A DNA stretch of 64,000 bases from NCBI GenBank assembly GCA_035940575.1, contig DASZER010000043.1, positions 130,961-194,960 on the forward strand, in the 5' to 3' direction. Positions within the stretch are counted from its first letter, which is position 1. Each line of letters starts with the position of its first letter. Position numbers and translations under genes: made by a program. The notes under the pieces are model-generated. The model searched no databases. It was not told the DNA's origin and saw only the letters and a list, made by a program, of their open reading frames with translations. The DNA is from Frankiaceae bacterium (GTDB lineage Bacteria > Actinomycetota > Actinomycetes > BP-191). Shown piece after piece: positions 42,683 through 42,937 of the stretch.

Positions 42683-42696
42683 GGAAGCACCCTTCC
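42683..42696 (-). promoter_or_regulatory. Short perfect hairpin in sheath leader/promoter region
   Basis: GGAAG-cacc-CTTCC (5-bp stem, 4-nt loop), between the phased repeats and the sheath SD. Confidence 0.3.
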
Positions 42697-42701
42697 GCCG
42701 C

Positions 42702-42737
42702 GCCGTCACGTGGCCGTCACCGCGCCGTCACGGCGCC
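42702..42737 (-). promoter_or_regulatory. Three GTGACGGC direct repeats spaced exactly 11 bp, flanked by GGCGCC; candidate SARP-type activator site for the eCIS operon
   Basis: Plus-strand gccgtcac occurs at 42702-42709, 42713-42720 and 42724-42731. In transcription orientation this reads GGCGCC GTGACGGCGCG GTGACGGCCAC GTGACGGCGCG, ending about 40 nt upstream of the sheath ATG. Confidence 0.5.
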
Positions 42738-42899
42738 CAGCCACTCCCCGACGAGCGCCGGCACGTCCTCGACGCGCGCGGTGACGCGCTCGTAGGCGGG
42801 CTCCTCGCCCGGCGTGAGCTGCCCCCGTACACGTGCCGTCACGGCGCCGTCCTCGCCGGTCCACACGCGCACCACGAGGACGTACGTCCGCTCGCTCAT
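42717..42899 (-). CDS. 60-aa hypothetical ORF upstream of sheath (coding status uncertain)
   Basis: ATG start: MSERTYVLVVRVWTGEDGAVTARVRGQLTPGEEPAYERVTARVEDVPALVGEWLGAVTAR. The composition is plausible, but its 3' end is made of the phased repeats (AVTAR = GCC GTG ACG GCG CGG). Confidence 0.35.
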   Translation of the reverse strand: MSERTYVLVVRVWTGEDGAVTARVRGQLTPGEEPAYERVTARVEDVPALVGEWLGAVTAR

Positions 42900-42920
42900 G
42901 CCGCCTGCTTACGCCGCGGC

Positions 42921-42937
42921 TGTCACGCCCGCGTCAC
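42921..42937 (-). promoter_or_regulatory. Two GTGAC(G/A) direct repeats spaced 11 bp upstream of the 60-aa ORF
   Basis: Plus-strand gtcac occurs at 42922-42926 and 42933-42937. In transcription orientation this reads GTGACGCGGGC GTGACAGCCGC. The first repeat overlaps the SARP gene stop codon. Confidence 0.4.

Follow-up and report, generated by a model that had tools for sequence, protein, structure and literature searches.

Helically phased GTGACG repeats as putative SARP boxes of a contractile injection system locus in a Frankiaceae bacterium

In promoters controlled by SARP-family activators, direct repeats are spaced at 11 or 22 bp, and a distance of 8 bp separates the 3' repeat from the -10 element (PMC10936776). 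At the afsS promoter, the -10 hexamer is weak (CACTGT), a usable -35 is lacking, and the afs box overlaps the -35 region and the spacer (PMC10936776). Extracellular contractile injection systems (eCIS) occur widely in actinobacteria, and how they are switched on is largely obscure; the sole characterised actinobacterial regulator is the LuxR-type SlpR/SCO4263. Geller et al. (2021) counted genes encoding BTAD proteins among the eCIS-associated 'shell' genes and among the putative regulators. The BTAD/SARP genes found by eCIS loci are so far known as a genomic association only, and the literature searched contained no cis-element or regulon for BTAD/SARP-type eCIS regulators. In the present study, we analysed 64,000 nucleotides of DNA from a Frankiaceae bacterium (GenBank assembly GCA_035940575.1, contig DASZER010000043.1, positions 130,961 to 194,960 of the forward strand; hereafter the window, numbered from its first letter). 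In this window, GTGACG-type 7-mers spaced one helical turn apart stand upstream of the contractile sheath gene and of three other genes around a small SARP gene. The analysis suggested that these phased 7-mers are probably SARP boxes, through which the adjacent SARP would activate an eCIS regulon.

The sequence features of a SARP-controlled promoter, namely 11-bp repeats, the 8-bp distance to the -10, a poor -35 and a cognate SARP beside the cluster, were all found at this locus. The arrays are like the described SARP boxes (the afs box of AfsR at afsS and the heptamers of ActII-ORF4, DnrI, RedD and PimR) in their 11/22-bp direct repeats with 7-8 conserved bases per unit. They are also alike in the placement of the array over the -35 region and spacer, in the 8 bp between the 3' repeat and a weak -10, and in the small SARP situated in the cluster. 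They differ in that the unit is GTGACG(S) rather than TCGAGCS or CGTTCA, and in that the proposed regulon is a contractile injection system with its DUF4157 effectors rather than an antibiotic cluster. Moreover, the hosts reach beyond Streptomyces to Frankiaceae, Thermoleophilia and Acidimicrobiia, several targets seem to be leaderless, and some clades carry 4-8 units. Of the known regulators of contractile injection systems, SCO4263/SlpR (LuxR/GerE-type; S. coelicolor, S. lividans) and RfaH are likewise cluster-situated transcription factors; the experimentally studied actinobacterial one is of the LuxR type, whereas the candidate here is a SARP. What is new is the GTGACG unit, the regulon of eCIS and DUF4157 genes and the wide taxonomic spread; the promoter architecture is canonical for SARPs.

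To evaluate the repeats against chance, the window (G+C content 75.4%) was compared with 100 dinucleotide shuffles. GTGACR-N5-GTGACR was matched five times, against 0.13 +/- 0.37 expected, and none of the 100 shuffles gave five matches. All five were on the minus strand within 6 kb (42704-48599), in the same orientation as the downstream genes. They formed four arrays, each immediately 5' of a co-oriented gene: S1 before the sheath gene, S2 before an open reading frame (ORF) of 60 aa, and S3 and S4 before eCIS_core (DUF4157) genes. The initial annotation had estimated that such recurrence should happen far less than once per window, and yet saw it at four upstream regions within 6 kb; the shuffles bore this out. 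The single GTGACR hexamer was not enriched (141 against 125 expected); since the pairs were enriched and the single hexamer stayed at background, the signal lies in the phasing. The spacer scan peaked at N6 between GTGAC cores, which is one helical turn, with a further peak at N17. A secondary peak of the scan arose because GTGAC pairs at an 18-bp period occur in conserved tube-gene coding sequence. These pairs run antisense to the tube gene in many loci (L001 13204-13222, minus strand; L004 5180-5198, minus strand; L008-L010 near 12150) and are conserved coding sequence, not a regulatory array. When two mismatches were allowed, the number of repeat pairs in the window was at the chance level (32 against 33.9 expected), so no additional degenerate sites can be claimed. 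These results confirmed that the repeat arrays are real and not a product of chance, and the coordinates given in the initial annotation were all correct.

Array S1 consists of three GTGACGG 7-mers with an 11-bp period on the minus strand (42731-42725, 42720-42714 and 42709-42703). It lies 5' of the contractile sheath gene (40669..42660, minus strand; Pfam Phage_sheath_1 and Phage_sheath_1C), the first gene of the eCIS structural operon, which continues with the tube gene (40173-40667, minus strand; Phage_T4_gp19) and then the baseplate genes. The predicted -10 hexamer of the sheath promoter, AAGGGT (42689..42694, minus strand), stands 8 bp past the last 7-mer, and the orthologues have CAGGGT, CACGGT, CACCCT or CACCTT at the same offset. 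Transcription of the sheath gene is inferred to start near 42681-42683, which would give a leader of about 21 nt containing the strong Shine-Dalgarno sequence GGAGG (42669-42665, minus strand) before the ATG at 42660. The scan for a consensus sigma-70 promoter in 42500-49200 revealed no -35/-10 pair, and the TGAC-containing hexamers nearest to the -10 are 9 or 20 bp away from it. The initial annotation had described S1 as an array upstream of the sheath gene, and the three copies are indeed there; copy 1 and part of copy 2, however, are also coding, as they form the end of the 60-aa ORF (codons ..AVTAR*), whose TGA stop is the TGA of copy 2. It had also reported a perfect hairpin, GGAAG-GGTG-CTTCC. 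The hairpin is present but does not fold beyond shuffled sequence (z = -1.38; 22 of 200 shuffles fold as well) and is absent from L001, L004, L006 and L007, and it was rejected as a leader element. No Rfam family or terminator was found in the region.

Array S2 (42920..42948, minus strand) lies 5' of the 60-aa ORF and comprises TTGACGT (42948-42942), GTGACGC (42937-42931) and GTGACAG (42926-42920). The latter two had been described before; the third, upstream copy TTGACGT had been missed. The predicted -10 hexamer TAAGCA (42906..42911, minus strand) again stands 8 bp past the last 7-mer, only 6 nt before the ATG at 42899. In the orthologues, S2 reads TTGAC(G/A) - (G/A)T(A/G)ACG - GTGACA(G/C), followed at the same offset by TAGACA, TAGGAC or TATGCA. 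The promoter-proximal copy GTGACA(G/C) is invariant, and the copy at the SARP stop codon is GTGACG, GTAACG or ATAACG in close relatives. The copies TTGACGT and GTGACGC lie in the final SARP codons, and the SARP TGA stop (42936-42934) falls inside GTGACGC. This overlap, pointed out in the initial annotation, is real, but as a notable feature it was discarded as trivial: GTGAC holds a TGA and 11 mod 3 equals 2, so a triple array stops all three frames and any ORF that enters it ends inside. Owing to these three-frame stops, SARP and small-ORF frames end within arrays in many unrelated loci (L011, L013, L014, L015, L025 and L046). A lone GTGACG at 42842-42837, also reported earlier, is present in the sequence, but it was attributed to chance: single GTGACR occurs at background, this copy is in coding DNA (DGAVTA), and the closest relative, L007, does not retain the peptide.

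The 60-aa ORF itself (42717..42899, minus strand) lies between the SARP and sheath genes, shows the coding bias of third-position G+C, and is predicted to have a leaderless mRNA. Its product is annotated as a hypothetical protein, and gene calling gave the small ORF a length of 59 aa in every related locus. The word-index search for homologues returned only the protein itself, and the family had no Pfam match. A conserved family of small proteins of about 60 aa with the motif ..YVLVVRVW..G..ARxRGQ...EWL.. was recognised in the window, in L011 (5240-5458), in L025 (8508-8699) and in L100, after its SARP gene; the C-terminal tails of the distant homologues differ. The gene sits between the SARP and sheath genes wherever both adjoin and seems to have its own SARP-box promoter. 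The protein could be a SARP partner or modulator, or an eCIS accessory protein.

Arrays S3 and S4 precede two eCIS_core genes. S3 (47132..47149, minus strand) has two GTGACGC 7-mers 5' of a gene encoding eCIS_core and an M35 peptidase (45439-47118, minus strand); its -10-like hexamer GACGAT (47122-47117, minus strand) is at offset 9, and the gene may start as a leaderless GTG at 47109. S4 (48582..48599, minus strand), also with two GTGACGC 7-mers, stands 5' of the eCIS_core gene 47196-48560. It is followed at offset 8 by GATCGT (48573-48568, minus strand), then by 7 nt and the GTG at 48560, a leaderless geometry. Arrays were likewise found 5' of eCIS_core genes in L001, L004, L006, L008, L011, L013 and L015.

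The distance between array and -10 was then quantified. The pattern xAxxxT occurred exactly 8 bp past the last 7-mer in 18 of 43 eCIS-locus arrays (background 0.018, p = 2e-20). For a reverse test, metagenome contigs were scanned for the triple GTGACG array, and the same pattern stood at offset 8 in 20 of 68 independent arrays (p = 4e-16). At none of the other offsets was p below 0.001; offset 9 was a minor mode, and offset 15 was similarly weak in the eCIS set (p = 0.008). Examples of the offset-8 hexamer are AAGGGT, CAGGGT, CACGGT, CACCCT, CAGTGT, CAATGT, GATCGT and GAACGT, and in the window the predicted -10s of S1, S2 and S4 follow the rule, with that of S3 at offset 9. At S2, S4 and most eCIS_core genes elsewhere, the start codon comes 6-8 nt past the hexamer (20-22 nt past the 7-mer). 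With so short a distance from the -10 to the start codon, the mRNAs of the 60-aa ORF and of the two eCIS_core genes are most likely leaderless. Transcription is predicted to begin 6-8 nt past the hexamer, at the start codon itself for the 60-aa ORF and eCIS_core genes and about 20-90 nt before that of the sheath gene.

The candidate binder of the repeats is the small SARP gene at 42934-43686 (minus strand), the only SARP in the window. In agreement with its earlier description as a SARP, a family with an OmpR-type winged helix plus BTAD, the product has a BTAD domain (residues 145-244, E = 9e-21). The alignment with the AfsR SARP domain in the cryo-electron microscopy structures 8HVR, 8K60 and 8JKE (E = 1e-11) covers residues 24-244, recognition helix included, and R87, T88 and R92 of the AfsR recognition helix align with R79, S80 and R84. 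The Pfam Trans_reg_C model gave no score on this protein. With a winged helix and BTAD, a length of 250 aa (family range about 250-300 aa) and no extra domains, the protein has the composition of the small SARPs; it is identical to the 250-aa protein P0001 of a metagenome-assembled genome (MAG). Ahead of the SARP start codon stand a conserved cTACGGT and then 7-8 nt, in the window (43687-43710, minus strand) and in L001, L004, L006 and L007, which suggests that the SARP mRNA is leaderless and transcribed from a TAnnnT -10. A double repeat upstream of the SARP gene is absent in the window; arrays stand there in L006 (4747), L136 and L143, and the SARP may be autoregulated in some lineages only.

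Conservation of the arrays was assessed first in close relatives. Contigs L001, L004, L006 and L007 have SARP homologues with 70-90% identity, and the order SARP, 59-aa ORF, sheath, tube was kept throughout. The initial annotation had proposed aligning orthologous loci for conservation of the spacing. In this comparison, the triple GTGAC array was retained in all four at the end of the small ORF, before the sheath gene, and the flanking intergenic DNA had diverged. In all, five independent loci of Frankiaceae type show conservation of the arrays.

For the distant survey, a sheath protein scan with one genome per species returned 79 loci. The results indicated that a small SARP lies beside the sheath gene in nearly every actinobacterial locus and not in the non-actinobacterial ones; with an HMM score above 200 bits as the threshold for an adjacent SARP, 34 of about 41 actinobacterial loci had one next to the sheath gene, the exceptions including L021, L026 and L033. 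Exact GTGAC pairs or triplets were detected 60-110 bp before the sheath gene in 17 further actinobacterial loci, nearly all of them beside a small SARP gene, among them Dactylosporangium, Micromonosporaceae, Actinomadura, Streptomyces, Yinghuangia, Gaiellaceae, Miltoncostaeaceae, Solirubrobacteraceae and several uncultured lineages. The layout is shared by the cultured relatives Dactylosporangium roseum NRRL B-16295 (L009) and Actinomadura sp. 6N118 (L011). Of the 34 loci with an adjacent SARP, 17 have the exact pair before the sheath gene, against 1 of the 44 without, a comparison confounded by phylogeny and base composition. A motif-free autocorrelation of the sheath-upstream region (-170 to -40) peaked at lags 11 and 22 in the actinobacterial loci (0.39-0.41 against about 0.30), and no such peak appeared in non-actinobacterial loci or in coding DNA. 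The consensus of the 102 pooled units is (g)cgGTGACG(s), and 91 of them have G at position 6.

The recognition helix also differed between loci with different repeats. It reads ..LR(S/T)ALWRLR.. in loci with GTGAC arrays and ..LR(Q/R)ALWRLNR.. in loci with nnGACG/ACAAC arrays, and the difference falls at the position aligned with the base-contacting T88 of AfsR. This pattern is suggestive of co-variation between the SARP recognition helix and the repeat class. The second class of arrays was seen in L034-L047 (Micromonospora, Nostocoides and related), with 4-6 looser units (nnGACG, ACAAC) at an 11-bp period in the 170 bp preceding the sheath gene. The end of the array is followed in the Micromonospora loci by GAGAAT, then by 6 nt and the sheath ATG, and the sheath mRNA appears to be leaderless. 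About 8 GCGAC units are present in L018 (Ilumatobacteraceae). Copy numbers above three exceed the SARP dimer seen for AfsR.

Taken together, these results lead us to conclude with high confidence that the repeats would be promoter-proximal binding sites of a winged-helix activator, and it is likely that the adjacent SARP is that activator, as the initial annotation had proposed; the computational tests agreed with the SARP-box reading. In the proposed mechanism, two or three protomers of the SARP would sit next to each other on the DNA, each on one 11-bp repeat. The array would lie over the -35 region and the spacer, in promoters lacking a usable -35 and with only a weak -10 placed 8 bp after the 3' repeat. 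Through contacts with sigma region 4 and the RNA polymerase core, the bound SARP would recruit the polymerase, as in the AfsR-RNA polymerase structures. The predicted targets are the eCIS structural operon from the sheath gene onward, the 60-aa ORF and the two eCIS_core (DUF4157) effector genes.

Several observations weigh against this assignment. Coding constraint also acts on copies 1 and 2 of both S1 and S2, the -10 hexamers are weak and were recognised from sequence only, and the co-variation of helix and repeat is based on essentially two clades. The third eCIS_core gene (43791-45434, plus strand), which is divergent from the SARP gene, has no array in the window; its sole degenerate copy, GGGACG, is at the wrong offset (7). 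Its orthologues in L001, L004 and L006 have a perfect double array, which points to an apparent loss or decay of one regulon member in the window. L026 carries a perfect triple GTGACG array (9909-9937, plus strand) followed by GATACT, with no SARP within 10 kb on either side. Its neighbours, GGDEF and cupin genes, included no candidate for a substitute regulator; either the regulator gene is located elsewhere or a different protein takes the role. Phased repeats with no SARP close by were seen in L021 and L033 as well. In the reverse test, a SARP or sheath homologue was present on only about 12 of 120 metagenome contigs with triple arrays, and many of the genes downstream were unrelated to eCIS or unknown, so the motif alone is not diagnostic of eCIS. 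Finally, GTGAC-N6-GTGAC fits both the GTnAC/GTAAC half-site of GlnR and its 11-bp phasing.

This last point opens the strongest rival explanation, in which the repeats are sites for another OmpR/PhoB-type regulator whose gene lies elsewhere, chiefly the global nitrogen regulator GlnR, the eCIS tracks nitrogen status and the adjacent SARP acts elsewhere; we consider it improbable. The GlnR box has the form gTnAc-n6-GaAAC with 11-bp phasing, and its protomers also occupy sites downstream of the -35 (PMC10235972). Both types of site have 5-bp cores phased at 11 bp; GlnR boxes are bound, and the present arrays would be, by an OmpR-family winged helix with head-to-tail protomers reaching into the promoter spacer. 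The likeness extends to the GTAACG or ATAACG of the S2 copy at the SARP stop in orthologues and to the SARP-less Arthrobacter locus L033, which has GTAACGCCGCA-GTAACGCC before its sheath gene. The perfect array of L026 and the triple arrays outside recognisable eCIS contexts point the same way. The arrays here nevertheless differ from GlnR boxes in adjoining a SARP gene, serving eCIS genes and being without GAAAC b-sites: the core resembles an a-site, and none of the 102 units is GAAAC. G is strict at positions 3 and 6, and the position-6 G lies outside the GlnR consensus. Among 47 downstream proteins there was no amtB, glnA, ure or nir product; the genes downstream of the arrays were those for sheath, eCIS_core, Pvc16_N and unknowns. 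In addition, GTNAC-N6-GNAAC was at the chance level in the window, the repeats vary between clades together with the SARP recognition helix, whereas GlnR is highly conserved, and the 8-bp rule is a documented SARP signature.

A second explanation, which we regard as very unlikely, is that the repeats are the core promoter itself, as stacked -35 elements read without an activator (GTGACG matches TTGACA at 4 of 6 positions, or would be the -35 of an extracytoplasmic function (ECF) sigma factor). The TGAC core does match TTGACA, and the array keeps a fixed distance to the -10-like hexamers. The distance to the -10, however, is 9 bp for the last copy and 20 bp for the penultimate one, and neither falls within the 16-19 bp of sigma-70-type promoters; the ECF-sigma or -35-only reading was rejected on this spacing. 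The consensus scan found no such promoter, 2-6 direct copies one helical turn apart are typical of winged-helix oligomers and not of sigma recognition, and no sigma factor gene was found among the Pfam-annotated genes of the locus. A BldD box (TNAC-N5-GTNA) was set aside, since its spacing differs by one from that of the arrays, which are direct repeats and not palindromes.

The least probable explanation, that the repeats are non-regulatory (a coding by-product of VT.R* tails, tandem duplication, GC composition or an RNA-level element), can draw on the coding copies 1-2 of S1 and S2, the 5-bp hairpin and the many low-GC metagenome matches that are simple tandem repeats, but it is largely refuted by the excess over shuffles, the conservation in relatives, the periodicity at lags 11 and 22 and the offset-8 geometry. 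Against it also stand the conservation or recurrence outside ORFs of the non-coding S1 copy 3 and all of S3 and S4, an 11-bp period that is not a multiple of 3, the differing C-terminal tails of the distant 60-aa ORF homologues, the unremarkable fold, unconserved hairpin and lack of an Rfam match, and the location of the arrays 5' of the inferred transcription starts.

Other observations were made in the window and in the surveyed loci. A 58-aa ORF (48692-48868, minus strand) lies just 5' of S4 and has a signal-peptide-like N-terminus, four cysteines (MKRLLTVALLAGGLAAAVPASAAPWCGSAAGVRCTPDNVRFCQVWITATRTCVEMPKP) and a GGAG 8 nt before its ATG. In L048 (9520-9830, plus strand), a SARP-less locus of an Actinomycetaceae MAG, at least 9 copies of a longer repeat, GTGACGAWCGTGCGCC, precede the sheath gene at spacings of about 21 and about 51 bp; it has a GTGACG core in a different architecture, and it may serve a different regulator as operator or be a repeat element. 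Among the metagenome arrays, triple arrays with the 8-bp/-10 geometry stand before a gene for a muramidase with GH25, peptidase M15 and peptidoglycan-binding domains (L110 344-1648, minus strand) and before Pvc16_N genes (L118 1034-1618 and L123 3-410, both minus strand). These genes, with links to eCIS or the cell envelope, may be further members of related SARP regulons, for example in lysis or release.

Beyond this locus, we tentatively propose, as a possibility we would not yet favour, that contractile injection systems across Actinomycetota share a regulatory code made up of a dedicated small-SARP clade and the GTGACG box belonging to it, under which the sheath operon and, separately, each DUF4157 effector gene would be switched on from activator-dependent, mostly leaderless promoters. 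If so, the motif together with the geometry of 8 bp, -10 and start codon could predict unlinked effectors, lysis genes such as the L110 muramidase and accessory genes, and the arrays of 4-8 units would imply higher-order SARP assemblies beyond the AfsR dimer. A defined operator with a fixed geometry, found from Frankiaceae to Streptomyces and in Thermoleophilia, makes the SARP hypothesis directly testable, and silent eCIS could possibly be awakened through it. The finding would extend SARPs past antibiotic clusters and would provide a sequence rule for the effector genes of the system.

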